Shown here piece by piece: positions 1-16,008 of a DNA stretch of 18,442 bases. A program made the position numbers and the translations under genes. The notes below the pieces were generated by a model that saw only the letters and a program-made list of their open reading frames with translations, searched no databases and was not told where the DNA came from. The stretch comes from Promethearchaeota archaeon. GTDB lineage: Archaea > Asgardarchaeota > Lokiarchaeia > Sigyniarchaeales > SOKP01. The DNA lies in the NCBI GenBank assembly GCA_019058015.1, contig JAHLWH010000199.1, positions 1-18,442 of the forward strand, in the 5' to 3' direction. Numbering within the stretch: position 1 is the stretch's first letter; each line of letters begins with the position of its first letter.

Positions 1-1
1 A

Positions 2-1204
2 ATCAATAGAGATTTTTAAATTAATCGTTTCCAAAAATTCATTTAATAATTTTTGGAATTTATATAGCCAAATACCTAATTTCTTTAAAGATTTTATTTT
101 GCTTTCAATCTCATTACTATCAAATTCTTCTAACCCTTTCGAAAAAAAGTCGTCTAAATTGGATTTAAACAGATTTAAATCCTTTATTAAGAGATCACTT
201 TCATTTTTAAAATACTTTTGATTGAAACTTTCAATTTTTATAATTTCTTTAGTGATATTTGCAATATTTGATTTGATTAAGCTTATCGGTCTTATATGAG
301 ATAGTTCTTTTAAACCAGATTCTGTTATTTCATCCAATTTATTTAAATCAATAACTTCTTCTAATTCCATTCGAAGATTTTTTATTTTTTTCTTATCAAT
401 TTCAAGATTTTCTTTTAGGTTATGATAAATTTTATCAAATTCTTTAAATTTAGGCATATTCTGATTTAATTTATATTGGGAATTTTCAATTTTTTGCTTG
501 ATATCGTTAATTTTATCTCTTAGAATTTTAGCATTTTTCCTTAGGGTTTCAATTTTTTTATTTTGATCATTACTCTGGCTTTCTTCTTCTCGAGTAAGAA
601 TATTAATCTGATTAAAAATTTCCTTTTGTTCTTTTTTAAATTTAATTTGTGTTTTTTTTAAATTCCCGAGATTTTCTTCAAGCATTTTTTTTTGATTTTT
701 AATGGATAAATAATCCTCTTCAAATAATTTTAATCTAGTGTTATATTTAATAATTGAATCATTTAATTTATTAAATAGAGTTATTTTAGTAGCAATTTCT
801 GCTGATTTATTTCTTTCTTGGGCAATCTTTAATTCGGTATTTAATTTTTTTTTTTCAAAATTGAGCTGGTTTAATTTTAAGAATGAAATACAATTTCCTA
901 AAAAAGAGATATATTTATCTAAAAATTCAATATTTTTTTGAGTTGTTTGAGTATATTTTGCTATAATTTCAATAAAATTAATATTGTCAATCAGACTTTT
1001 CTGTTCTTTAGAATTTTTTTTATATAAAATCAGTAACTTTTCTAAGCTTATTTTTGGAATTTCATCAAGAAGGTAGATATAATTACCCAATTGAAGTTGA
1101 TCTAAATCCTGAGAAAGAAATTTACCTTGAATAATATTAAATTTATTTTTTATTTCTACTGAAAAATCTTTAATTTTTATTATAAATGAATCAGAATTAA
1201 TCAG
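2..1204 (-). CDS. Long coiled-coil protein, 3'-truncated by the window edge (>=400 aa); missing from the ORF track
   Basis: My translation of the minus strand is open from 1204 to 2 (LINSDSFIIKIKDFSVEIKNKF...KLNTELKIAQERNKSAEIATK...KNAKILRDKINDIKQKIENSQYKLN...NEFLETINLKISID), with extensive K/E/L heptads. An in-frame TAA lies five codons upstream. The start is most likely CTG at 1204 or ATT at 1201, both overlapping the upstream gene's TGA and following an AGAGGT SD-like motif. Confidence 0.85.
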   Translation of the reverse strand, partial: MINSDSFIIKIKDFSVEIKNKFNIIQGKFLSQDLDQLQLGNYIYLLDEIPKISLEKLLILYKKNSKEQKSLIDNINFIEIIAKYTQTTQKNIEFLDKYISFLGNCISFLKLNQLNFEKKKLNTELKIAQERNKSAEIATKITLFNKLNDSIIKYNTRLKLFEEDYLSIKNQKKMLEENLGNLKKTQIKFKKEQKEIFNQINILTREEESQSNDQNKKIETLRKNAKILRDKINDIKQKIENSQYKLNQNMPKFKEFDKIYHNLKENLEIDKKKIKNLRMELEEVIDLNKLDEITESGLKELSHIRPISLIKSNIANITKEIIKIESFNQKYFKNESDLLIKDLNLFKSNLDDFFSKGLEEFDSNEIESKIKSLKKLGIWLYKFQKLLNEFLETINLKISID

Positions 1205-2268
1205 TCTAAACCTCTTTTAGTTTTTTTTTGAATTTTATTTAAGTGTTTTTCAAATTCTTCTTCCTTTTTTTGCTTTCTTTTTCTAATAACTTTTAAAGGA
1301 TCGATATCAGCTTCATTATTTTCTATTATATCTCTACTAAATATATCTTGTTTTGTGGTTTGGGTTGATTCTTCTTTCTTTTCCATTTCCTTTTTTTTAT
1401 CAGCAGGAGGGTGTTCTTTTTTTTCTAATTTAGATAAAGAATCTAATTTTTTTCTTTTTTTTTTACGTTTTAATCTTTGAAATTCATCTTCGGAAAGAGT
1501 AAATAATTTATCATAAGATTTGAATCGTGTATCTTGTTTTTCTTTTAATCTATCAAGCTCATCCATTTTCTTTTTTTTGTCTAAAGTAATCTTTTGGGTG
1601 GCAAATTTATTTTTAGGAAATCTGGATTCTGAAGTTATCATGAATTCTTTAAAAGAAATTTTGTTTTTTATGTATTCTTTTTTAAACTCATTAATAATTT
1701 TATAGTCAATGTTTTTAGGAATTTTATTTAGTTCAATATTTAATAGTCGTTCCATCTCATTTTGATAAAATTTTTTTATTTTATTTAGGGTTGTTAAAAA
1801 ATCAGGGTTATTCTTTAATACATCAACTATTGACTCCCAAAAATCAACATCGAGTGAAAAAATAAAACTTGTTTTTTCTAAAAAAGATGATACTTTCTTG
1901 TTTTTAATTAATGAAATACCGACTTTTTTAAGAGAGTCTTGAGAAATGTTTTTTTCTGTTAAAATGTTTTTTATTGTAAGAATATATTGAGATAATAGTA
2001 AGTCTTTAAACAATAACCAATTTTCTAAGTTAAGTTCAGAGTTTTTAGATAAATTTGAATATATTGCTTCTAATAAGTTATCTAAATCATTAAAAAATTT
2101 TTTTCTGTCATTCTCTATTAGATCTGGTTTTTTGAGAAAATTTTTTAGAGTTTCTTTATAATTGAGATATAATTTACTAATTAAATTTAATTTTCCTTGA
2201 ATTATATCTATAGAATTAGTTAATTCTTTTATTCTATCTACAGAAAAGATTATATTCTCTGATTCCAT
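1201..2268 (-). CDS. Hypothetical protein with helical N-terminus and highly charged K/E-rich C-terminus
   Basis: 355-aa ORF with ATG start, co-oriented with its neighbours; its stop overlaps the next gene's start. No recognisable motif. Confidence 0.8.
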   Translation of the reverse strand: MESENIIFSVDRIKELTNSIDIIQGKLNLISKLYLNYKETLKNFLKKPDLIENDRKKFFNDLDNLLEAIYSNLSKNSELNLENWLLFKDLLLSQYILTIKNILTEKNISQDSLKKVGISLIKNKKVSSFLEKTSFIFSLDVDFWESIVDVLKNNPDFLTTLNKIKKFYQNEMERLLNIELNKIPKNIDYKIINEFKKEYIKNKISFKEFMITSESRFPKNKFATQKITLDKKKKMDELDRLKEKQDTRFKSYDKLFTLSEDEFQRLKRKKKRKKLDSLSKLEKKEHPPADKKKEMEKKEESTQTTKQDIFSRDIIENNEADIDPLKVIRKRKQKKEEEFEKHLNKIQKKTKRGLD

Positions 2269-2330
2269 CTTTCGATTTTTTATTTATTATTTTTATATAA
2301 TCAACAGGAAATTTTTGGATATATTAATTA

Positions 2331-3407
2331 TTAAATTTCACGAGGACCTTCAAGATGATTATGGTTTATTCTTAATATTTTTTTATCCCTGGAATATTTC
2401 CTTTCAGAAGCACTCAAAAAATATTGTTGTTCAACATGGATTTTAGTACCTCCCACTAATTCCAAGGAATGGACAAAATTTTCATAAGTTAAAATGTCAG
2501 ATTTTAATGCTTTAAATAGAGCAACTCTCACTCCACGCTCTAAATCTGCACCTGTGTATCCACGCGTTAAAAATAAAATTCCTCTATTTTCGATAATTGT
2601 TTTATCATTCCATAATGCATTCGAATCTTGTATGGATTTCTTTTTACTCATTAAAGATTTTAATTTTTCTTCCTTAGATTTTAATAATGCATATTCTTTG
2701 TTTAAACTAACAAGAATTACATCATCTACCCCAATTTTTGCGTTACTAATTTTATTAATAAAAGACTCAATTATTTTTTTCCTGAGATGAAATGAAGGAA
2801 AATCAAATTTCAAATGAAATGTAAATCTTCTCCAGATTGCAGAGTCTAATTGGTCTTGATGGTTAGTAGCACCTATAATTGCTAATGGTGTTCCAAAGTA
2901 ATTTATTTTATCAATTATTTGTAAGAAAGATATTACAGCTCTTTTAATTTCGCCTACTTCGTGAATATTCGATCTTTCAGAAGCAATTGCGTCAATTTCA
3001 TCAAAAAATAATATAAAAGCTCCATTTTCTTCAGCAATCTGAGCTGATAATTCCACTACTTTTCTAATATTTTTAACGGTATCGCCTAATAGTGCAGAAA
3101 CTAATCTGTCAGACTCTACTACACACAATGGGATATCAAATTCCTTTGCAAATGCTCGAGTTAAAGAAGTTTTTCCAGTTCCAGGTGGTCCATATAGGAG
3201 GACAGTTAAATTTGGAACTAATTTAGTCTTTTTCAATTTTTCAACAACTTCGGTATATTTTTTTAACGAACTGAAAAAATCTTCAAGCCTTTCCTTTAGA
3301 ACCTCATTTCCTAATATATCACTAACATTCTCTATTATTTCATTCGGTAAATAAACCGTTCCATACTTATCAAGCCTTTCTTTAATTTCATCATCTGTAT
3401 ATGTAAT
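2331..3407 (-). CDS. Single-domain classical AAA+ ATPase; true start probably ATT at 3407 rather than TTG at 3236
   Basis: Walker A GPPGTGKT, Walker B ILFFDEID, sensor-1 GATN, second region of homology LDSAIWRRF, lid GYTGADL. The frame stays open for 59 codons upstream of 3236 and encodes VSDILGNEVLKERLEDFF, matching the conserved 'DIxG.e.vK..l.e' opening of AAA domains. Confidence 0.9.
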   Translation of the reverse strand: MTYTDDEIKERLDKYGTVYLPNEIIENVSDILGNEVLKERLEDFFSSLKKYTEVVEKLKKTKLVPNLTVLLYGPPGTGKTSLTRAFAKEFDIPLCVVESDRLVSALLGDTVKNIRKVVELSAQIAEENGAFILFFDEIDAIASERSNIHEVGEIKRAVISFLQIIDKINYFGTPLAIIGATNHQDQLDSAIWRRFTFHLKFDFPSFHLRKKIIESFINKISNAKIGVDDVILVSLNKEYALLKSKEEKLKSLMSKKKSIQDSNALWNDKTIIENRGILFLTRGYTGADLERGVRVALFKALKSDILTYENFVHSLELVGGTKIHVEQQYFLSASERKYSRDKKILRINHNHLEGPREI

Positions 3408-3413
3408 TTTTTC

Positions 3414-4682
3414 TTACACCCCTTCTTTATTTTTTTTTCTTATTTTATTTAAATATTCACTTAAATCTAAAATTAGTTCCTTAATGCAATCTATGCTAGA
3501 ACCTGCAAAATTAAAAATTTCTTTTCTATATTGGACAGAATCCCGGATTTTCATCCTATCTAATTTTAAATAGTTATTAAAGCATAGAAGTTTCATCATA
3601 TAAGGTATTACTTTTTCTTGAGTTTTCAAACTAGTAAAAATAGGATAGAAAATATTATGATCACTTAATTGACATTTTAAAATTGTCGAAAAAATAATAA
3701 ACGCAAATGTCATAGAAATCCAATTAATTAGTTCTTTAGATAAAAAACCTCGACGTAAAGAAACGAAGGCAAGATAACTTAAAATTAGAGTCTCATTACT
3801 GAATTGAGGTATCAACCTAATCTTGCCATCGGATTGTTTATTTTCTCTAATGAAATCATTTTTAATTAACACATCTATAAAATCATACTTAGGAGCAAGA
3901 AAAATTTCATCTAGAACTCTTAATCCTAAGCGTTCGCAAATTTTTTCAATTGCTTCTTGCTCTTCATGAGCAATATTATCAATAAACGCTTCAAAAACAT
4001 CATTGATCAAGATTACCGGAATTTCTATGTTAGAATCTTCAGGACAAGGATAATAATTAGGATCCAAGTTGTATAAAGAGGTTATATTATTAATTATTTG
4101 GTATAATTTTGGAGAAATACCGGGAATTTCGAAGAAATCCGGGTTATCCACAGTTTCCCTATAATATGTATGTGGGATCATCATATACCTTTGACATTCA
4201 TACCAATTTACTGATGTTTTATTCAACTTCATATAAATTTCTTCAAAATTTTTACCAATAGGCAACAAAAGATCTTCTAAATATTTGTAAAGAAGATATA
4301 AATATGTAGAATTTAATTTTTTTTGATCTGGGTTTGTAATATTTATTAATATTTGTAAAGCACTTATGCATTCATCAAAAAATTCAATTAGATAATCTTT
4401 AATATCTATAGGCTCTAAATCCTCAGAATATTTGTATATAAAATTTTTAATATTTTCAAATACTTTACCTCTATAATATGCCGAGAATTCGGATAAAGCC
4501 CTCACTCTCTTCACTAATCGTTTTTCTTCGTCCATTTTTATCTTATCAAAAATCTTTATGTCCATCATCACTTCCAAACTCATATTTTGGACAGTTCTTT
4601 TTGTTTCTTTGAGGATTGGAACCAGATGACTTAAATATGTTAGATATCTTGCGAAAATGTCTGTCCATTTTTCTCTAACCAT
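3414..4682 (-). CDS. Hypothetical protein (422 aa, mainly helical)
   Basis: Long ORF, ATG preceded by AGGAG, tightly packed in the cluster. The segment FIDVLIKNDFIRENKQSDGKIRLIP could be a winged-helix wing (weak). Confidence 0.8.
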   Translation of the reverse strand: MVREKWTDIFARYLTYLSHLVPILKETKRTVQNMSLEVMMDIKIFDKIKMDEEKRLVKRVRALSEFSAYYRGKVFENIKNFIYKYSEDLEPIDIKDYLIEFFDECISALQILINITNPDQKKLNSTYLYLLYKYLEDLLLPIGKNFEEIYMKLNKTSVNWYECQRYMMIPHTYYRETVDNPDFFEIPGISPKLYQIINNITSLYNLDPNYYPCPEDSNIEIPVILINDVFEAFIDNIAHEEQEAIEKICERLGLRVLDEIFLAPKYDFIDVLIKNDFIRENKQSDGKIRLIPQFSNETLILSYLAFVSLRRGFLSKELINWISMTFAFIIFSTILKCQLSDHNIFYPIFTSLKTQEKVIPYMMKLLCFNNYLKLDRMKIRDSVQYRKEIFNFAGSSIDCIKELILDLSEYLNKIRKKNKEGV

Positions 4683-4707
4683 AAAAGTCTTCTCCTAAAT
4701 TCTTAAT

Positions 4708-5850
4708 TTAATCTTCAATAGAAGTATCTACTATTACTTCTGCGAAAATTGAACCTATACTCACGAATATATCAATTTCGACACGACACAACTCCCCGAG
4801 AATCCAACGGTTTATATCCTTCAATATAAAGCGAGTCTGGTTGTGGATCTTTCTTCTAACCTCTGTTGTGTCAATTGCTTTCAACCACTCTCCACCACCC
4901 AATCGATAGGCGACAATCTTTATGAGCGGCTCTAATAAGTCTAACAACACCTCTTTCATCATCCAGGACTTGGGAATAACACTCATCCTATTGGAATCGT
5001 ATGAAGGGTCTTTAAGAATTGGATTGGTCTCATCAACGTCAAGTTTAGGCATAAGTGAGATCAAAAAAATTAAACTAAATATGTTACAGATACCGTTTAC
5101 TGTATAAACACCGCCTATTTTCTTTAGATCATCTCTATGAACTGAAATATTGGCTAAAAACAAAGAGATGAAAACTGTTTTATCGAATTTTTCTGAGACC
5201 ATTTTTTCTCCAAGTACTTCATCAGTATAAACATATTCACCTTCTAGGATTTCTAATATTTTTTCAGGAAACGTGTAAAAAGTATAAACTTTTCGCTCGC
5301 TTTTCCTTTTATCTTTTTCAACGATCAATTCTTTCGCTTCTAAACCGAATAAATCCACAAGATCTTGCAAACTCTCTTTTACATATTTACGTGCTTTATT
5401 GGGGTCAGAAAACATTGCGTAAAATTGATGATCTACAATTTGAAAATCCGGTCCTTTACTAAACGCCTCAACTAATCTATCAATGACAGTTCCTTGAACA
5501 TTTAAAGCGATTGTTTTGCTTCTTGATGATATAAAACCATTAATTAATTCATTTATTATAAAATCTTGATCATGAGAGCGAGATTTTATGATACGCTCAA
5601 ATGCTTCAGCCAGATCTTTGGTTTTTGGGAAAAAAGCATTTTGAATTTTCTCATTAATTGATTTTATAAATAGATCTCCATTATTTTGTGGAAAATAATC
5701 TCTCATTACTTTCAATCGTTCGATCAAGGCTTGCTTAGCACCAGGAATATTATCAATATCTCTTTCTTCTAGTTTCTTAATAGATCTATCAATATTTTTA
5801 GAGAATTCAGTAAGTAATTTTTCCCATTCAAGATTATCGATCCCACTCAT
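4708..5850 (-). CDS. Hypothetical protein (380 aa)
   Basis: Long ORF with an AAGGTGAT SD upstream of ATG. A helix plus hairpin segment (YVKESLQDLVDLFGLEAKELIVEKDKRKSERKVYTFY) is weakly winged-helix-like. Confidence 0.8.
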   Translation of the reverse strand: MSGIDNLEWEKLLTEFSKNIDRSIKKLEERDIDNIPGAKQALIERLKVMRDYFPQNNGDLFIKSINEKIQNAFFPKTKDLAEAFERIIKSRSHDQDFIINELINGFISSRSKTIALNVQGTVIDRLVEAFSKGPDFQIVDHQFYAMFSDPNKARKYVKESLQDLVDLFGLEAKELIVEKDKRKSERKVYTFYTFPEKILEILEGEYVYTDEVLGEKMVSEKFDKTVFISLFLANISVHRDDLKKIGGVYTVNGICNIFSLIFLISLMPKLDVDETNPILKDPSYDSNRMSVIPKSWMMKEVLLDLLEPLIKIVAYRLGGGEWLKAIDTTEVRRKIHNQTRFILKDINRWILGELCRVEIDIFVSIGSIFAEVIVDTSIED

Positions 5851-5888
5851 TTATTCAATCACCTTAATCGTTTGTATTAAATTTTATC

Positions 5889-6857
5889 TTATTTAGCCCA
5901 ACCTATTTCTTTTTGTAATTTTTTTAAAGCATCAATTAAAAGAGGGACTTCTGATTTATCGTAAATATTTGGTGAGCCTGTTCCTTTTTTTGTAGTCCAA
6001 GATAGTTGTCCTCCATCACCAGCTTCATAATATCCGTATTTTAATAGTTGTTGTAAATTCCTTTCCCATGCATAGAATCTTAACCATTTCTTATTGGGGT
6101 TATCTTTTGAATATATAACAGCTATAGCTTTCCATAAACTCATTAACCATTCTATAGTAATACCCGCTACAGGGAGATAAAAATTAATAGGAAAATTGGT
6201 TGAGAATTCTAATGGGAGATCTTTAGGATCAATATTAAAAATAGGTTCATTACGAGATTCCAAGATGATGATCTCGCCACAGTGTTCACATTCATAATGT
6301 GTTTTTCTTTTACTTAATGTTAATTTTTTACTACAATTCGGGCAAATTTTATTTTCGAGAATTCTATACTTTAGAATTTTTAAACGCTCATTTTGAATTG
6401 CTTTATCTTCTGTTTCTTTTTTTTTTTTTTCAAATCCTTTAAAATTACCCCAATATTCGTCAAATGAAGAATTTATTTTTTCCAAGGATTTGATTAAATT
6501 ATTCAATACTGCTGATTCAGTTATTTTGAAAAAGCCTGCATGTGTATTTATTTCTTTTTTCCACCAACTAAGTCTGATATATTTAGAGTTGCTTAAATAG
6601 GAGCTATGACAGAGTAATGCTGCCACCCACCTATTTGGAGATTTAGAAATGGTAATTCCTTTTTCACAAATTTCATATTTCTTATTTAAACTAGCGTTGT
6701 TATGAAAATAATCTCCTTCTTGAATTTCTCCAATAGTAGTTTCTTTCTTTTTTTCAATTTCTTTGATCTGTCCTTTAATTATTTTTTTACACTTTGGACA
6801 TTGAAATATTTGCTGAACGAGTTGTTCCATCTCAACGTTACATACAGGGCATTTAAT
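5889..6857 (-). CDS. Internally duplicated [Zn-ribbon + PC4/YdbC-like domain]x2 protein; start probably ATT at 6857 (or 6860)
   Basis: In-frame sequence upstream of ATG 6830 encodes I-I-K-C-P-V-C-N-V-E, completing a CPVC...CPKC ribbon. A second ribbon is CPNC...CEHC. Each ribbon is followed by a similar GITI...W.A......K(Y/W)(I/L)R...W....LI..L.K domain. The PC4-like call is an inference. Confidence 0.8.
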   Translation of the reverse strand: MKCPVCNVEMEQLVQQIFQCPKCKKIIKGQIKEIEKKKETTIGEIQEGDYFHNNASLNKKYEICEKGITISKSPNRWVAALLCHSSYLSNSKYIRLSWWKKEINTHAGFFKITESAVLNNLIKSLEKINSSFDEYWGNFKGFEKKKKETEDKAIQNERLKILKYRILENKICPNCSKKLTLSKRKTHYECEHCGEIIILESRNEPIFNIDPKDLPLEFSTNFPINFYLPVAGITIEWLMSLWKAIAVIYSKDNPNKKWLRFYAWERNLQQLLKYGYYEAGDGGQLSWTTKKGTGSPNIYDKSEVPLLIDALKKLQKEIGWAK

Positions 6858-6876
6858 AATCGGGCACCTTCCTTAT

Positions 6877-7983
6877 TTATACATTTATAATTCTATATCG
6901 TTCATAATCTAAATTAAGTAGCTTTATTTCATTTTTTTCAAATTTAGATACTTCTTTTTTGATATTTACTAATTCTTCTCTTAATTTGACTAATTTATCT
7001 TTAATTTGATTTAAGATATTATCTTCGTTGTATGATATTTTAGTAATAAATTCTAAATAGGTATATTTTTTTCCCTTTCCAGAATAGTAATTTTTAATTT
7101 TACTTAATTCTTCATCAATTTCATTTAATCTATTTCGTTTTATAAGTAAATTTATAAGGATAGAATGCCATTTTTTAAAAATTTCATTTTCTTTATCTAC
7201 AACTTCCTCCAGATCAAATTTAGCAGGTAATTTTTTTACGTTTTCTTGCATATATTCAAGAATGACTTTATTAATGTCTATTGCCTCTTTGATAATTCTG
7301 AGATTTGATTTTTTATTTAATATAGGATCATATAGTTCAATGAAATTGGAGACTTTTTCTAATAATTCTTTAAACCTGTTATAAAATTCATTAATTGTGG
7401 TTTCGACCTTTATTGTTTGATATGGATTTCCTAAATCATCTAAAATTTCATACAGATCGTCTGCTAATAAATAATTTTCCTTACCAATTTCAAATAGAAA
7501 AGGATGAATTATATCGCTATTTTCGCACATAATTCCCTTCAACCTTGAGATGGCATAGTGAAAATTTCGTTTTGTTAAAAATGTGAATTTTTTTGAGATA
7601 ATAGGAAATAATGTATTTTCTGGAACAATTATCTTATTCTCTTCAATTCTTATCGGTTCCAAAATTTTAATTAAAAAATCATCTTCTTTCTTTTCCAGCT
7701 CTTTTAAAGATCTTAAATTTTTAATTATTCCTAAATCTATTAAAATTTCGGTCAGTTCTTTATTTGAATATAATTCCAAATCGCTTTTGAGAATTTCATC
7801 CAAATTCATTAATCTTTTAAATGAATTGAGCCAAGATTCATCTAATAAATTTTTTAACATATCGTTTCGAATTATGTAAAGATATAATAGAATATAGCGA
7901 ATCTCAACATTTTCAAATACTTTATTTATAAGATTTTTATCTACTTCAATGGATAATTGCTTATGCTGTTCCATTTCTTCCAA
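6877..7983 (-). CDS. Hypothetical protein with globular N-terminus and coiled-coil C-terminus; first gene of the left cluster
   Basis: 368-aa ORF (TTG 7983, or ATG 7974); heptad-rich C-terminal half (LNEIDEELSKIK...IKDKLVKLREELVNIKKEVSKFEK). Confidence 0.8.
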   Translation of the reverse strand: MEEMEQHKQLSIEVDKNLINKVFENVEIRYILLYLYIIRNDMLKNLLDESWLNSFKRLMNLDEILKSDLELYSNKELTEILIDLGIIKNLRSLKELEKKEDDFLIKILEPIRIEENKIIVPENTLFPIISKKFTFLTKRNFHYAISRLKGIMCENSDIIHPFLFEIGKENYLLADDLYEILDDLGNPYQTIKVETTINEFYNRFKELLEKVSNFIELYDPILNKKSNLRIIKEAIDINKVILEYMQENVKKLPAKFDLEEVVDKENEIFKKWHSILINLLIKRNRLNEIDEELSKIKNYYSGKGKKYTYLEFITKISYNEDNILNQIKDKLVKLREELVNIKKEVSKFEKNEIKLLNLDYERYRIINV

Positions 7984-8201
7984 CCTACTTTAATTTATAT
8001 GATATTAAATAATTTGATCTAATCAATGTAATCTATTCCAATAAGATAATTAAAAAGAGATACTAAAATTATTATACCATAACATAAAAATTTTTCTATT
8101 TTACGGGAAATGGGTAAATTAAAAAGAGAAAAATTTTTTACTCTTAAAAATTATTAAAAATTAAAAGAAAAATAACAAATATTACAAAGACGGGAAATTT
8201 T
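7984..8201. promoter_or_regulatory. Divergent intergenic promoter region between the left cluster and elf1
   Basis: 218-bp AT-rich non-coding gap between oppositely oriented starts. Several TATA-like words are present but none can be assigned uniquely. Confidence 0.5.
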
Positions 8202-8933
8202 ATGGGCCGAAGGAAGAAAAGAAAGAAAATTTATAAAAAATCGCGCAAACTTCCCAAAATCTTCACATGTCCATCATGTGGCTCTAAATCAGTTAAAATA
8301 GAGAAGAAAATAAAGTTAATTACATATTCAATAAAATGTATTGATTGTGAGCTAGAATGGGAGGCACATCTGCGCTCAGAAAATGAGTTATATGATATAA
8401 ATGGGGAAAATGTAAAAAACTGCTCTATTTGTGGTGGAAAATTAAAAAAAACAGAATTAAAAGATAAAATTGTCAATTTAGTTGAAGTTAAATGCGGAAC
8501 TTGCGGATTACAAAAAGAGGTTTTAGCCCGTTCTATTGAAGCTGCTGTAGATTTTTATGGGTCATTTATTGACATATATTTTACAGATCAAGAATATCAT
8601 CGTTTAAAGGGTAATATTAAAGAACATCAAAAAGAGAAAAATTGGAACGAATTAGCTTTAACTTATTCACTTCTATCAGATATTACAAAAATTAAAGCCT
8701 CAGAATTATCTAAAGAATATATTTCAACAGGAGAAGAAGAATTACTAGAAGAATCTAATAAATGGAGAGATGAAGCAGCAAACTATAAATTATTAGAAAG
8801 AGATTTACGTGAAAAAATTAAACAAGAAGGTACTGGCGTTGATCTTGAGGAAGAAATAGAGGTAGAAGAAAAACTAGCAAAAGATAAAACGCTTGAAGAG
8901 GTTTTTGATGATCCAGGATTCCTAGAGTGGTAA
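8202..8933 (+). CDS. elf1: Transcription elongation factor Elf1 homologue with an inserted second Zn ribbon and a C-terminal helical/acidic extension
   Basis: Basic N-terminus MGRRKKRKK, LPKIFTCPSCG, and later VKCGTCGL...AVDFYGSFID, matching the Elf1 pattern (F.CP.C ... C..C ... vDvY..wiD). Confidence 0.85.
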   Translation: MGRRKKRKKIYKKSRKLPKIFTCPSCGSKSVKIEKKIKLITYSIKCIDCELEWEAHLRSENELYDINGENVKNCSICGGKLKKTELKDKIVNLVEVKCGTCGLQKEVLARSIEAAVDFYGSFIDIYFTDQEYHRLKGNIKEHQKEKNWNELALTYSLLSDITKIKASELSKEYISTGEEELLEESNKWRDEAANYKLLERDLREKIKQEGTGVDLEEEIEVEEKLAKDKTLEEVFDDPGFLEW

Positions 8934-8937
8934 TCTT

Positions 8938-10704
8938 TTAAAATTTTTCTTTTAATTTAGAAACTCTATTTCTTATTGATTGTTTTGGGTTTTTAGCGAA
9001 GATAATCTTTTCATTTGGATAAGATTTAAAATAATTCATAATTTCATCTGGGATATTTTCCCAAATTGGTATTTTTACGAAATAATCGAAAAAATGTTTA
9101 AATTTTATATTTTTCTTTTTGAAAAAATAAGCCCATCTATAATATGCTATTCGATTGAACGTTTTTATTAAACTGATACCCATTGGATTATACTTGGAAC
9201 TTAAGAACGTTGCGAGGTAAGACCACATTTTTTGAGTTTGTGGTATAGATTCTGGATAAACAGAATCTGATAAAGGTCGTATAAAAATCTCATGAATTGT
9301 TATAATTGGTATCAATTCATCTACTAATTTTAATATTTTTTCTCTATAATTAGGATCATTAACAGACATTGTAGTAATTTTCATCATTTTTCTTTTTGCA
9401 TAATTAAGATGTCTCTCTTTAAAATATAACCACATCTTTGCCATGTCATCTCTTAATTCCTCAAGCTTTTCAATGATTTTTTCTTCATTGAACTCGATTT
9501 TATATTTATTTCCATATTTCCTTACTAATTTTAATAAAATTGAATCAGATTCTTCTTGTTCTAATTCATATAATCCATTTCCCTCTTGAGTATAACTGAG
9601 CTTATGTTGTTTAGGAGAATGAACTGTATGAGTATATAATGGAGTAGTCCATAATTTTTGTCTAATTTTATCTAAGATAATATTTGTTAACTCAATATCT
9701 TTTACTTTTTGCAAGTCTTTCGATAAAGGAATAACTTTTCCTTTCCTTAATTTAAATCTTATTTTATCAATAAGTGAAAATTCCTTTAATTTTTCTGCGA
9801 TTTCCTTTCTTAATTCTTTAATTCTTAGAGTAATAGCGTTATTAGATGAAATTAATTTTTTAATATAAGGGTAAAAATCAATATGATATTTTTTTTTTAT
9901 AAAAGTATTATCAATAAGGGGGATTTCCTTAAATCTTTGCCCTCTATATTTCAAAATACTCATTGCATGATCTCCTATTGAATAAGAAAATACAACATTT
10001 TCTAAGGTTTGATTTAAATTATCATAATTTCCGATTAATTTAGGTCTTTTTATTTTATAACCATGTAAAAGTGTGTCAACTCCTTTAAATCCATCTTTAA
10101 ATTCTGAAATTATCACAGATTCAAATTCTCCAGGATGATGTCTATTTAAATTAAAACGTTTTTCAACAAGGGAATTCGCTTGATTTACTTTATGAAAAAC
10201 TGTATAGCCCCATTTTAATAATGGATTAAGGAATCTCAATAAACCAATATTATGTTCATAAAATAAGGGATTAAAAATGATTGGAAAACCAAATCCACGA
10301 GAAAAATTGTAAATAAACTGAAATACAGACCTTTTTTTTTCATTTGGTAATACACCTGGAAAATCAAAGTTAAATGCAACTCGTGGAAAAACAGCATCCA
10401 TTCCAAGATTCATCCATGCCTCAAACAAATGTATTGCATCGGGAAATCGAAAAGCATCATTTTTTTTCATAAATTCTATATTTAGAGAATTCAATGTGCT
10501 CGGAACAGAAAATAACCAATCGGAATTTTCTTCTAATTCTTTTATACTCTTTTTAAATCTTTTTAAAACAATTGGTTTCATTTTTTTTTGAATATCCTTC
10601 TTTTTTCTATAGTAATTATTCATCACTCGTAATAGTGATATAATTTCTAGAACCCTCTTCTGAGAATCATGTATTACCTTTACTGTTTTTATATTTTCAG
10701 TCAT
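8938..10704 (-). CDS. Hypothetical protein (588 aa, basic, aromatic-rich)
   Basis: Long uninterrupted ORF converging on elf1 with a 4-bp gap; no family motif recognised. Confidence 0.8.
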   Translation of the reverse strand: MTENIKTVKVIHDSQKRVLEIISLLRVMNNYYRKKKDIQKKMKPIVLKRFKKSIKELEENSDWLFSVPSTLNSLNIEFMKKNDAFRFPDAIHLFEAWMNLGMDAVFPRVAFNFDFPGVLPNEKKRSVFQFIYNFSRGFGFPIIFNPLFYEHNIGLLRFLNPLLKWGYTVFHKVNQANSLVEKRFNLNRHHPGEFESVIISEFKDGFKGVDTLLHGYKIKRPKLIGNYDNLNQTLENVVFSYSIGDHAMSILKYRGQRFKEIPLIDNTFIKKKYHIDFYPYIKKLISSNNAITLRIKELRKEIAEKLKEFSLIDKIRFKLRKGKVIPLSKDLQKVKDIELTNIILDKIRQKLWTTPLYTHTVHSPKQHKLSYTQEGNGLYELEQEESDSILLKLVRKYGNKYKIEFNEEKIIEKLEELRDDMAKMWLYFKERHLNYAKRKMMKITTMSVNDPNYREKILKLVDELIPIITIHEIFIRPLSDSVYPESIPQTQKMWSYLATFLSSKYNPMGISLIKTFNRIAYYRWAYFFKKKNIKFKHFFDYFVKIPIWENIPDEIMNYFKSYPNEKIIFAKNPKQSIRNRVSKLKEKF

Positions 10705-10724
10705 ATTCTACTTAATAAATTTAG

Positions 10725-10790
10725 TTAAAATATTAATGAAAATCTTATTTAAAACATTAATGATAATAAAAATCTTATTTAAAATATTAA
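10725..10790. repeat. Short direct repeats upstream of the 588-aa gene
   Basis: AAAATCTTATTTAAAAYATTAA at 10739-10760 and 10769-10790 (30-bp period, one mismatch), plus a third TTAAAATATTAA at 10725-10736. Confidence 0.6.
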
Positions 10791-10992
10791 AACTATTATA
10801 AAGTAATTATTTTTTAATCTTTAAACAAAATATATGAAATGAGTAATTAATTCGCAATTTGAAAGAGAGAAAATTATATTTTTACTTTTATTTTATTAAT
10901 AAAACGAGAGAGAAATAAATATTAAATTTTATTAATCGAGAATCAAAATTAATGAATTAGGTATTTTATTGAGGGTGAAATATATAAAATTA

Positions 10993-11400
10993 TTATATTT
11001 TTTTTCTTTTAGAAAACAATTCTTTGAGCTCTCCCATAATAGCACCTCTTAGAGAGATTGGATTAGCTGCTCTCGCTGGTTCAGGACCAGCGGGTGGACG
11101 TCCCGGAGGTGGTGGAGGCGCTCCTGGCGGAGGTGGTGGAGCTCCTGGGGAGCGAGCCAGACTTCCAGCTCCTGCTGATACAGCCGTAGCTCCTTGAGCA
11201 GTTCTTGTTTCCAGTGAAGTGAGCCTTCCTTCAATTGAAGAAATTCTTGAATTTATAACAGATAAGCTTTGATCTACTAAATTGGGAATTTTTAACACAA
11301 TTTTCATTATACTTTCAATGATATCTGCAAGTCCTTGGAGTTTTTCATCAAGTGGTGCTTTCCGGGTTGCAGCTAACATTGAATTAAATTCTTCGGCTAT
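10993..11400 (-). CDS. Small coiled-coil + polyproline + C-terminal basic amphipathic helix protein (candidate actin regulator); start ATA 11400 or ATG 11379
   Basis: Heptads LSVINSRISSIEGRLTSLETR, a Gly/Ala linker, PGAPPPPPGAPPPPPGRPP, then LRGAIMGELKELFSKRKKI. In-frame ATA-GCC-GAA-GAA-TTT-AAT-TCA precedes the ATG, and an AGGGG motif lies 9 nt upstream of the ATA. Confidence 0.8.
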   Translation of the reverse strand: MAEEFNSMLAATRKAPLDEKLQGLADIIESIMKIVLKIPNLVDQSLSVINSRISSIEGRLTSLETRTAQGATAVSAGAGSLARSPGAPPPPPGAPPPPPGRPPAGPEPARAANPISLRGAIMGELKELFSKRKKI

Positions 11401-11523
11401 TTTTATCTTCCCCTATGAAAAAAAAATTTTTCTATATAATTATAATCGATTAAATATTTATTTTTAATTATTTACCTTTTTATTTTTCAATGATTCTAAA
11501 CCAATATTTAAATTTTTTTAAAT

Positions 11524-14466: not shown

Positions 14467-14747
14467 ATAAAAGCATCTGAAGTCTTAAATCTATTGAGAG
14501 TATCAAGACCAACATTAACTAACTACGGAAAACAAGGATTGGATTTAATTTATTTCAAAGATTATTTAGAGAGTCCGGAACCGAGATAATTGTTATTAAT
14601 GATTTAGAGTCTATCTTTACTGAACAAGAAATGTTTCAAGATATTATTTCCTTATTACATTGTTATGCGATGTCAATGTACTCACGGAGAATAAAAGAAT
14701 TCATAAAAAAAAAGAAGGAGGAATTTAAAAACGAGATTAGTGTATAA
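14467..14747 (+). pseudogene. tnpA: IS607 TnpA (serine recombinase) with internal deletion and frameshift
   Basis: From ATA 14467: IKASEVLNLLRVSRPTLTNYGKQGL (MerR-like HTH of IS607 TnpA). In another frame from about 14535: RIGFNLFQRLFRESGTEIIVIND...EQEMFQDIISLLHCYAMSMYSRR...stop at 14747 (IS607 TnpA C-terminus). The catalytic YARVS region is absent. Confidence 0.9.
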
Positions 14748-16008
14748 ATTTAGGTATCATAAAAGTGTTCATTTAGATGTACTATGTTATATTTCCAAAA
14801 AGCTATATAATCACGCAAATTTCTATGTAAGACAAGATTTCTTTAACTTAGAGAATTGGCTTCGCTATCAAGATTTGAATTTTATTTTGAAAAATTCTGA
14901 AAGCTATAAATTATTAAAGGCACAGACGTCTCAACAAATGTTAAAAATCTTAGATAAAAATTGGGTAAGCTTTTTCAACTCACTAAAAGAATGGAGGAAA
15001 AATCGAAAAAAATTCAACGGAAGCCCCAGACCGCCGGGATATAAAGAAGATACTTGTTATTTTCTGATATTTACTAATCAAAACAGTAAAATCGTGAATA
15101 ATAAGATCGTGCTTACCATGTCTAAATTTTTTAAAAGCACTTTCCCTCAATTTAAGGATTCAATAGAAATTAACATTCCTAAATATAAAAATAAAAATTT
15201 TAAGGCATATCAGCAAATACGCATTTTACCAAGAAAAAGATTTTATGAAATTGAAATTATATACATAAAATCGGTGGAGAAATCAAAATTAAATAATGAA
15301 TTATATTTATCTATTGATTTTGGATTGAACAATTTAATAACGGCTGTAGAAAATAGAAATTCTGTGCCAATAATAGTTTCAGGTAAAGTATTAAAATCCA
15401 TTAATAGACGATGGAATAAAAGAAAAGCCAAACTGTATTCTATAAAAGATAAGCAAAAATTAAGGTGGACAACCCAACTTGATTTTATTACCATAAATCG
15501 AAACTCAGTTATTAACGACTATTTACATAAAACATCACAATTTATAGTTGGTTATTGTTTAAAAAAAAAAATAGGAAATATTTGTGTAAGAAAATTGAAA
15601 GATATAAAAAGAAATATAAGAATTGGCAAAAGAAACAATCAAAATTTTGTTAATATCCCAATTCAAAAACTCAAGCAAATGATAACTTATAAAGCTAAAC
15701 TTGTAGGAATTAAGGTCCATGAAGTAGATGAGTCGTATACTTCGAAATGTAGCTCATTGGATTTAGAACCTATTGAAAAACACCATAATTATATTGGGAA
15801 CCGAATTAAAAGAGGGTTGTTTAAAGGCTCAAATTATTTACTCAATGCGGATGTAAATGGAGCCTTAAATATCTTAAGAAAAGTAGTCGGAGATGATTTT
15901 ATACAAGATCTATCCGATAGGGGTTGCTGGTTTCAACCCGTGCGAATAAGGGACATGTTCCAAACTTCACATGAACAATTTTTATTAAAACCTATTAGTA
16001 TTATTTAA
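14740..16008 (+). CDS. tnpB: RNA-guided endonuclease TnpB (IS607-associated)
   Basis: SKKLYNHANF, AQTSQQML, RuvC-I SIDFGLNNL, DYLHKTS, NNQNFVNIP, YKAKLVGI..VDESYTSKC, RIKRGLF, RuvC-III NADVNGALNI. Confidence 0.95.
   Translation: MYKFRYHKSVHLDVLCYISKKLYNHANFYVRQDFFNLENWLRYQDLNFILKNSESYKLLKAQTSQQMLKILDKNWVSFFNSLKEWRKNRKKFNGSPRPPGYKEDTCYFLIFTNQNSKIVNNKIVLTMSKFFKSTFPQFKDSIEINIPKYKNKNFKAYQQIRILPRKRFYEIEIIYIKSVEKSKLNNELYLSIDFGLNNLITAVENRNSVPIIVSGKVLKSINRRWNKRKAKLYSIKDKQKLRWTTQLDFITINRNSVINDYLHKTSQFIVGYCLKKKIGNICVRKLKDIKRNIRIGKRNNQNFVNIPIQKLKQMITYKAKLVGIKVHEVDESYTSKCSSLDLEPIEKHHNYIGNRIKRGLFKGSNYLLNADVNGALNILRKVVGDDFIQDLSDRGCWFQPVRIRDMFQTSHEQFLLKPISII

Follow-up and report, generated by a model that had tools for sequence, protein, structure and literature searches.

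Results

The stretch of DNA analyzed here, hereafter the window, is an 18,442-nucleotide (nt) contig (JAHLWH010000199.1, contig C203 of genome G000) from GCA_019058015.1, a metagenome bin of a lokiarchaeial Promethearchaeota archaeon that comprises 3.84 Mb in 283 contigs and is 94% complete with a GC content of 29.4%. Four genes on the minus strand of the window, which encode an AAA ATPase (2331..3407), a protein with a zinc (Zn) ribbon (5889..6857), a coiled-coil protein that runs off the contig end (2..1201) and a polyproline protein (10993..11400), are in reading frames that extend upstream of the first canonical start codon (ATG, GTG or TTG). A preliminary description of the window had proposed that all four start at ATT, ATA or CTG codons behind Shine-Dalgarno (SD) motifs, and the motifs and coordinates quoted for the four sites are all present on the minus strand. 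Our analysis indicates that the genes for the AAA ATPase, Zn-ribbon protein and coiled-coil protein probably do start at AUU near an SD word, and that such starts are a habit of the genus and several sister genera.

Pfam matches among the window proteins (pelota, Elf1, radical-SAM enzymes and a TnpB) are compatible with an Asgard archaeon, and the public proteins most similar to the AAA ATPase carry the source names Promethearchaeota or Candidatus Lokiarchaeota. The 16S ribosomal RNA (rRNA) of the genome has the 3' end GGATCACCTCCT, and the SD consensus is therefore GGAGGTGA. The spacing from SD word to canonical start in this genome is 4-10 nt with a mode of 7 nt, and a 5-nt SD word precedes about 15% of canonical starts. 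Since an SD-like word is also found at the right spacing from approximately 3% of interior codons in this AT-rich genome (29% GC), finding an SD word ahead of an in-frame ATT or ATA carries little weight by itself, and orthologues, together with domain evidence, were therefore used to decide.

The AAA ATPase frame spans 360 codons from stop to stop (2331-3413), is open from 3413, and has its first canonical start at TTG 3236, which is codon 60. The start was revised to ATT 3407, which gives 358 codons plus the stop codon at 2331-2333. The SD-like word GGGGTG (3417..3422, minus strand) is 9 nt before ATT 3407 and lies within the last codons of the upstream gene (3414-4682), and the ATG-started gene at 5850 has the same spacing (AAGGTG, 9 nt, ATG), as had been pointed out. 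Across 20 loci from the genus, family and order, the alignment of the protein begins at residue 1-4 of the stop-to-stop frame. At the position of ATT 3407, the orthologous codon is ATT in eight loci (this genome, three more species of the genus and four other genera), ATA in one, TTG in two (one of them in the same genus) and ATG in three; one further locus has ATG one codon downstream, and the remaining five have a longer N-terminus with its own ATG, TTG or GTG. No canonical codon is found upstream of the conserved N-terminus in the nine loci with ATT or ATA.

One alternative is that translation begins at the first downstream canonical codon (TTG 3236, ATG 6830 in the Zn-ribbon gene and TTG 1090 in the coiled-coil gene) and that the sequence upstream is an untranslated leader, open by chance. 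Gene callers give this result: the nearest public AAA ATPase clusters, at 95% and 89% identity, have lengths of 327 and 278 amino acids, or 31 and 80 residues short, and the Pfam AAA model begins at residue 71, downstream of TTG 3236, which itself is 11 residues ahead of the Walker A strand. Most public relatives at 63-68% identity, however, are 353-372 amino acids long and cover the whole query, as in the loci with canonical starts, and this supports the suspicion that N-termini in the lineage are mis-annotated. The leaders are as conserved across genera as the rest of the proteins (0.64 versus 0.67 and 0.53 versus 0.56), the first pair of values corresponding to 64% identity for the 57 extra N-terminal residues and 67% for the rest of the AAA ATPase in 16 orthologues from outside the genus. 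Moreover, relatives have ATG or TTG at the 5' end of the leaders, and neither TTG 3236 nor ATG 6830 is preceded by an SD word. Initiation at the downstream codons is therefore very improbable, an assessment to which the Zn-ribbon gene contributes further below. The 57 additional codons had been said to include the first conserved AAA segment; that they belong to the protein and follow a non-canonical start is borne out, although it is the orthologue alignment rather than the Pfam AAA domain that marks them as conserved, because the Pfam model starts only at residue 71.

The TAA stop codon of the upstream gene (3414..3416, minus strand) is in frame with the AAA frame in the window, and a single TAA divides the two frames both here and in G001, a genome of the same genus. 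It could thus be imagined that TAA 3416-3414 is read through and that the 422-amino-acid upstream protein is joined to the ATPase. The in-frame arrangement of the two open reading frames (ORFs) is not conserved among orthologues, however. The upstream gene ends in a different frame in loci L006, L008, L013 and L015, all of which carry ATT or ATA, L012 has two in-frame stop codons, and relatives carry their own ATG or TTG at the orthologous codon. As the frame of the upstream gene varies in this way, the in-frame TAA is incidental and read-through is excluded for practical purposes, with a probability that we regard as close to nil.

In the Zn-ribbon gene, the SD-like word AAGGTG (6865..6870, minus strand) is followed by CCCG and two successive ATT codons, which are 4 nt (ATT 6860) and 7 nt (ATT 6857) from it, the latter being the modal spacing of the genome. 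The first ATG of the frame (6830) is downstream of the first CPVC, and this first CxxC of the four-cysteine ribbon is kept in all 25 Zn-ribbon loci, which is difficult to reconcile with an untranslated leader. In 17 of these loci, which are from other genera, K-C-P-x-C is immediately preceded by ATG or TTG, in four a canonical start is present a few codons upstream of that motif, and in the four closest genomes the sequence is ATT ATT AAA TGC. Because the second ATT occupies the codon before K-C-P-x-C that is ATG or TTG elsewhere, it is the orthologous start, and we revised the start to ATT 6857 with ATT 6860 as the alternative. Thus, the proposal that a non-canonical start supplies the first CxxC stands, and the choice of codon shifts to the second ATT.

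The coiled-coil frame contains CTG 1204 followed by ATT 1201, and its first canonical codon is TTG 1090 (codon 43). The SD-like word AGAGGT (1210..1215, minus strand) is 7 nt before ATT 1201 when counted from the GGTG-aligned position. The TGA of the upstream gene (1203-1201) shares its A with ATT 1201, so that the two genes overlap by one base (TGATT here and TAATT in relatives). Both CTG 1204 and ATT 1201 had been put forward as starts. ATT AAT TC is kept in five of five genus loci; conservation does not extend to CTG 1204, which reads CTA in three of three close relatives, all of the same genus, and the start was accordingly placed at ATT 1201. Among 20 informative loci of the family, eight have no canonical codon ahead of the conserved IxIKDxFxLIxGKF motif, eight have ATG or TTG 12-20 residues before it, and four, including three genus relatives, are ambiguous. 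The ATT of the window is 17 residues before the motif, and in this gene the near-cognate codon is thus on the canonical position of relatives only approximately.

The polyproline gene turned out differently. As quoted, AGGGG precedes ATA 11400, which falls on the ancestral methionine of M-A-E-E-F; ATA 11406 and AAG 11409 are also in frame, and the next ATG is 11379 (codon 12). The M-A-E-E-F N-terminus is kept throughout the order, and in 24 of 25 loci ATG or TTG is found at that position or 1-3 codons upstream. In three same-genus genomes (loci L073-L075) the region reads GGG ATG ATA AAA ATA GCC, with ATG three codons earlier than ATA 11400, whereas the window reads GGG AAG ATA AAA ATA GCC; TTG is found in one other genus at the position of this AAG (11407..11409, minus strand). 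Judging from these alignments, AAG 11409 is a private loss of the start codon or a base error and not a habit of the lineage, and the inclusion of this gene in the original proposal has to be withdrawn. In this assembly, ATA 11400 is one candidate start of the gene. A TATA-like sequence, ATTATAATTATATAG, is found 21-35 nt upstream of 11409, and this box suggests that the polyproline mRNA of relatives may be leaderless.

The polyproline gene raises the question of whether the other sites could also be artefacts or signs of decay, that is, whether they reflect wrong bases in a metagenome-derived assembly or pseudogenes of recent origin whose start codons have been lost. To its credit, this explanation is true of the polyproline gene, in which AAG 11409 is private to the assembly. 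Further private changes were encountered in a pairwise check against a 400-kb sample of G001, in which 307 ORFs had an orthologue and the 36 with at least 20 start-less codons were read manually. These were a second ATG-to-AAG change at the 5' end of a 138-codon ORF (C83, minus strand), an AAG-to-TAG change that creates a nonsense codon (C241), and a 1-nt indel that causes a frameshift (C75). The load of private A/T changes or base errors in the bin is appreciable, at roughly 1% of the 307 ORFs compared. The ATT codons of the other three genes, in contrast, are shared with G001, G002 and G004. For each of these genes the same ATT is found in three or four other species-level genomes of the genus, and for the AAA ATPase in other genera as well; the three genes are still under purifying selection, and the essential gene for Nop5 is in the same state in four genomes. 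For the AAA ATPase, Zn-ribbon and coiled-coil genes, artefact or decay is hence scarcely credible. Examination of orthologues, which had been suggested as a check, thus upholds three of the proposed sites and not the fourth.

A survey of the whole genome indicates how common such genes may be. Among 3117 non-overlapping ORFs of at least 100 codons with an upstream stop and a canonical start, 130 (4.2%) have at least 40 codons before the first canonical start, compared with 1.0% in the two other frames of that upstream sequence. Most of these extensions resemble coding sequence in their codon usage; scoring by codon usage separates the classes on average only and was used for ranking candidates, not for deciding. 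Samples of 400 kb were taken from five genomes, namely G001 from the same genus, G038 and G033 from the same order, and G070 and G054 from other Asgard families. In three of the outgroup samples (30-42% GC) the in-frame tails are near the off-frame ones, a negative control for the method, and in the fourth (53% GC) the in-frame tail is higher (7.6% versus 3.2% off frame at 40 or more codons). In the SD-anchored counts, the ratios of sites with ATT or ATA only to those with a canonical codon in the five samples are 10:15, 5:13, 10:41, 6:59 and 2:21, none of which is significant. The 36 extension pairs that were read against G001 comprise 14 non-coding extensions with indels or stop codons in the relative, the three private lesions, nine undecided cases, and ten candidates for a shared non-canonical start.

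SD words provided a second line of evidence. In the first 12 codons of ORFs with at least 20 start-less codons, an SD word at 4-10 nt precedes 29 of 326 ATT codons (8.9%), 17 of 232 ATA codons (7.3%) and 5 of 19 CTG codons, compared with 171 of all 4296 codons (4.0%). The enrichment for ATT, ATA and ATC pooled has an odds ratio of 2.5 (p=7e-7); as references, the rate is 1-2% for AAT, TTA, TTT and TAT and 15-16% for canonical ATG and TTG starts. When GGTGA occurs near the 5' end of an ORF, it is followed by a canonical codon in 45 cases, by ATT or ATA only in 27, and by neither in 20, and the corresponding counts for seven control words are 41 with ATT or ATA only versus 103 with neither. Pooled SD words differ from the control words with an odds ratio of 1.8 (p=0.017). 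Context-free counts of trinucleotides after GGTGA or AGGTGA were powerless, as even ATG is just 1.1-fold enriched in them.

Domain content and orthology of individual codons point in the same direction. Of 20 candidate ORFs tested, ten have a Pfam domain that starts within the start-less extension (POR, the Nop5 N-terminal domain, AcnX, ETF, DUF7065, a zinc ribbon, two small GTPases, E2 and Roadblock). Six are neutral: the AMP-binding, SepSecS and TPP_enzyme_C domains start at or after the first canonical codon, Inos-1-P_synth matches far downstream only, and two ORFs have coiled-coil profiles only. The remaining four have no Pfam match. The gene for Nop5, compared over 26 loci, reads ATT AAG TGT TAT in four genus loci, with AAGGGG 8 nt upstream, versus ATG AAA TGT TAT in 18 other family loci, with one TTG, one GTG and two ATG loci of a sister family making up the rest. 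An ETF-alpha-like gene reads TGA TTT AAA ATA in all four genus loci and TGA TTT AAA ATG in the sister family, and in one further gene the start position holds CTG in three genus genomes, TTG in two, and ATG in the majority of other genera. A near-cognate codon thus stands on the canonical start of orthologues in the AAA ATPase, Zn-ribbon, Nop5, ETF-alpha-like and CTG genes. The suggestion that non-canonical initiation recurs is supported for both the genome and the family by the SD counts, the Pfam domains and these last three genes. We estimate that near-cognate starts occur in 1-3% of genes, or roughly 30-100, the lower bound being the approximately 28 excess SD-anchored ATT and ATA sites and the upper the ten of 307 orthologue pairs.

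The ETF-alpha-like gene of the genus (loci L301-L325) also differs in domain architecture. It is without the N-terminal 2x[4Fe-4S] ferredoxin domain of about 60 residues that is present in the closest sister-family orthologues and most other genera, and its ATA sits exactly at the ATG position of the longer, ferredoxin-domain proteins.

Several observations weigh against a genus-wide habit of near-cognate initiation. For every gene the evidence at the site is comparative. The excess of start-less extensions is far weaker in the 400-kb sample of G001, which is the better same-genus assembly (2.9% versus 1.8% at 40 or more codons), and is absent there at 20 or more codons (7.4% in frame versus 7.8% off frame). 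Private lesions (three of the 36 pairs) and the 14 clearly non-coding extensions make up part of the excess, and the crude excess is inflated. The samples of other Asgard lineages, at 400 kb each, lack the size needed to demonstrate lineage specificity. In the coiled-coil gene, the three ambiguous genus relatives have a GTG two residues before the motif that could serve as the start. Finally, a 5-nt SD word accompanies no more than about 15% of the canonical starts and 8-9% of the ATT and ATA candidates, so that dependence on SD is a tendency and not a rule. The description of start selection as SD-driven is supported in the statistical sense only, against a background of 3-4%.

Discussion

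Taken together, sequence comparisons indicate that the extensions of the AAA ATPase, Zn-ribbon and coiled-coil genes are coding and conserved, that a near-cognate codon occupies the place of the orthologous canonical start, and that this state is common to independent assemblies. What happens on the ribosome is a step further removed from these data. The best-supported mechanism is SD-assisted initiation at AUU, AUA or CUG by the ordinary initiator transfer RNA (tRNA). In the three genes of the window, an AUU 7-9 nt behind an SD-like GGTG or GAGGT word would be used for initiation, and the standard initiator Met-tRNA (anticodon CAU) would most likely read AUU with a mismatch at the third position, so that the proteins would begin with methionine and the SD word would offset the weak codon. 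More generally, AUU, AUA, occasionally CUG and possibly ACG would replace AUG or UUG at the conserved start in an estimated 1-3% of genes, including housekeeping ones such as that for Nop5.

A dedicated initiator tRNA for AUU or AUA was considered and set aside. Among 35 Rfam tRNA matches there is one initiator candidate, and it is an ordinary one (intron-bearing, with A1:U72, three G:C pairs in the anticodon stem and the anticodon CAU); the bin is 94% complete, and this result is consequently not proof of absence. ARAGORN reported few tRNAs in the bin (16 and 21).

An alternative mechanism is termination-reinitiation, in which ribosomes that finish the upstream gene restart a few bases away, largely irrespective of which codon is present, and the SD-like word is a coincidence. 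The geometry of the window is suggestive, since ATT is 6 nt past the upstream stop codon in the AAA ATPase gene and 19 nt past it in the Zn-ribbon gene (ATT 6857), and overlaps it by 1 nt in the coiled-coil gene (TGATT); such coupling in archaea is the subject of PMC10666635, as far as its accessible text indicates. Across the genome, however, 27% of the SD-anchored non-canonical candidates are within 20 nt of an upstream same-strand ORF, compared with 22% of all canonical starts and 37% of SD-led ones, and the ATT of the Nop5 gene follows AT-rich sequence and an SD word with no reading frame running in. Because tight junctions are no commoner at the non-canonical candidates than at canonical starts, coupling is not a general requirement, and reinitiation as the overall explanation appears unlikely. 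It is nevertheless a mechanistic variant that is compatible with AUU starts as proposed here, and it may contribute at the three tight junctions of the window.

A further question is whether the stringency of start-codon selection has been heritably lowered in the family through a change in the initiation machinery, with AUU, AUA and CUG as the sole starts of dozens of genes per genome, essential ones included. We consider this possible, although somewhat doubtful. Of the Asgard families sampled, this one has the aIF1 with the lowest Pfam SUI1 scores (50-70 bits versus 71-86 for most), with two other families also low, and in its sequence '..F.GN.D..' replaces the usual '..EGID..' after the basic loop. 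These differences offer a lead, and only a lead, toward relaxed fidelity. Two SUI1/aIF1 genes are present in G000 (C75:9202-9417 and C222:16454-16669) and in G023, and the second type pairs G000b with G023b; G001, of the same genus, has a single SUI1/aIF1 match. The second aIF1 is either a family-level paralogue or bin contamination.

Near-cognate initiation has precedents. In Escherichia coli, infC and pcnB have a conserved AUU start behind an SD sequence, and NCBI translation table 11 permits ATT, ATA, ATC and CTG as starts. The genes described here resemble infC and pcnB in that the near-cognate codon is at SD distance, is conserved, would be read by the ordinary initiator tRNA and is missed by gene callers. 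They differ in number and apparent purpose: the E. coli genes are isolated and the AUU of infC serves autoregulation by IF3, whereas here an estimated 1-3% of genes with many functions are involved, the factors are of the archaeal/eukaryotic type (aIF1 and aIF2), and there is no evident regulatory logic. In eukaryotes, initiation at near-cognate codons (CUG, AUU and ACG) is policed by eIF1. The set of factors is homologous (aIF1/eIF1, aIF1A and aIF2) and the family of near-cognate codons is the same, but in eukaryotes the ribosome reaches these codons by scanning and the products are mostly minor isoforms or upstream ORFs, whereas in this lineage an SD word or short leader would position the ribosome and the near-cognate codon is apparently the sole start of the main protein. 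In Sulfolobus, aIF1 discriminates against non-canonical starts, according to the portion of PMC6237735 available to us.

Within the Asgard archaea, the accessible part of PMC13394414 attributes a "likely rare ATT start codon" to a heimdallarchaeial tubulin gene. As in the genes of the window, the deposited tubulin lacks a terminal part, its first beta-strand, which is restored by an upstream ATT at a plausible distance from a ribosome-binding site. That remark, in the text seen, concerns one gene in another Asgard class without orthologue or genome-wide analysis, whereas the present case comprises several genes, three types of codon and codon-by-codon orthology. Our literature search for AUU starts in Asgard archaea and other archaea, as far as the retrieved texts reach, returned this single-gene remark and no systematic description. 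The passages available from the reviews PMC7531240 and PMC12993045 name AUG, GUG and UUG as archaeal starts or leave AUU unmentioned, and they describe SD sequences as rare in Lokiarchaea, in agreement with the count of approximately 15% reported here. Termination-reinitiation at overlapping gene pairs, as treated in the accessible text of PMC10666635, shares with the three genes of the window a distance of -1 to 19 nt from the upstream stop codon; it is described there for canonical starts, whereas the non-canonical candidates in this genome are not enriched at junctions. Overall, the use of near-cognate starts in this lineage would be a quantitative, lineage-wide variant of a known phenomenon.

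Structural and evolutionary studies of eukaryotic origins draw on metagenome bins for Asgard small GTPases, E2 enzymes, Roadblock proteins, Nop5 and AAA ATPases. Callers that accept only ATG, GTG and TTG would strip tens of N-terminal residues from the estimated 1-3% of genes, and the parts lost include zinc ligands, first beta-strands and whole N-terminal domains. Frequent use of AUU or AUA as the only start of housekeeping genes would be unusual for any prokaryote. The initiation factors of the lineage are homologous to eukaryotic ones, and cultured Lokiarchaeia would make the question experimentally approachable.

Gene neighborhood and other features

The gene order of the window is conserved across the family (window positions 1-11412, loci L005-L096). 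It comprises the coiled-coil gene, a paralogous coiled-coil gene that shares the N-terminal IIQGK motif, the AAA ATPase gene, genes for two unknown proteins, the Zn-ribbon gene, a gene for another unknown protein and, at some distance, the polyproline gene. In G001, pelota and the genes for the AAA ATPase, Zn-ribbon protein, coiled-coil protein and polyproline protein all map to C27:302-318 kb. None of the syntenic partners of the AAA ATPase has a Pfam family, and these genes may form a lineage-specific module around the ATPase.

Just two genes of the window are on the plus strand. One (14740-16008) is of the TnpB/IS605 OrfB type, with an OrfB_IS605 domain and a Cas12f1-like TNB domain, and has no adjacent TnpA. 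The other (8202-8933) encodes an Elf1-type zinc ribbon (PF05129, E=1e-15); its product is 243 amino acids long, compared with the 79 positions of the Elf1 profile, and has a second cysteine-rich segment and an acidic tail of about 130 residues.

Elsewhere in the genome, an ORF on the plus strand of C75 (from base 20352, 397 codons) encodes a P-loop NTPase that opens at Walker A (FNPKPSSGKST) right after a TAA. It has 91 start-less codons, compared with 48 in G001, where the start region is the same, and the beta-strand that normally precedes Walker A is missing from the frame. A split gene, recoding at this site or a lesion common to both genomes could each account for this ORF.

The 16S rRNA gene is divided over two contig ends (C111:40453-41294 and C75:22513-23151) at model position 828/829, and C75 has a short duplicate 16S piece (model positions 752-824) just past the break, which suggests either an assembly break or an insertion or intron at that site. 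SepSecS (C197:20675-21976) and an ARAGORN tRNA-SeC(tca) were both found in G000, and an in-frame TGA is therefore not necessarily always a stop codon in this genome.

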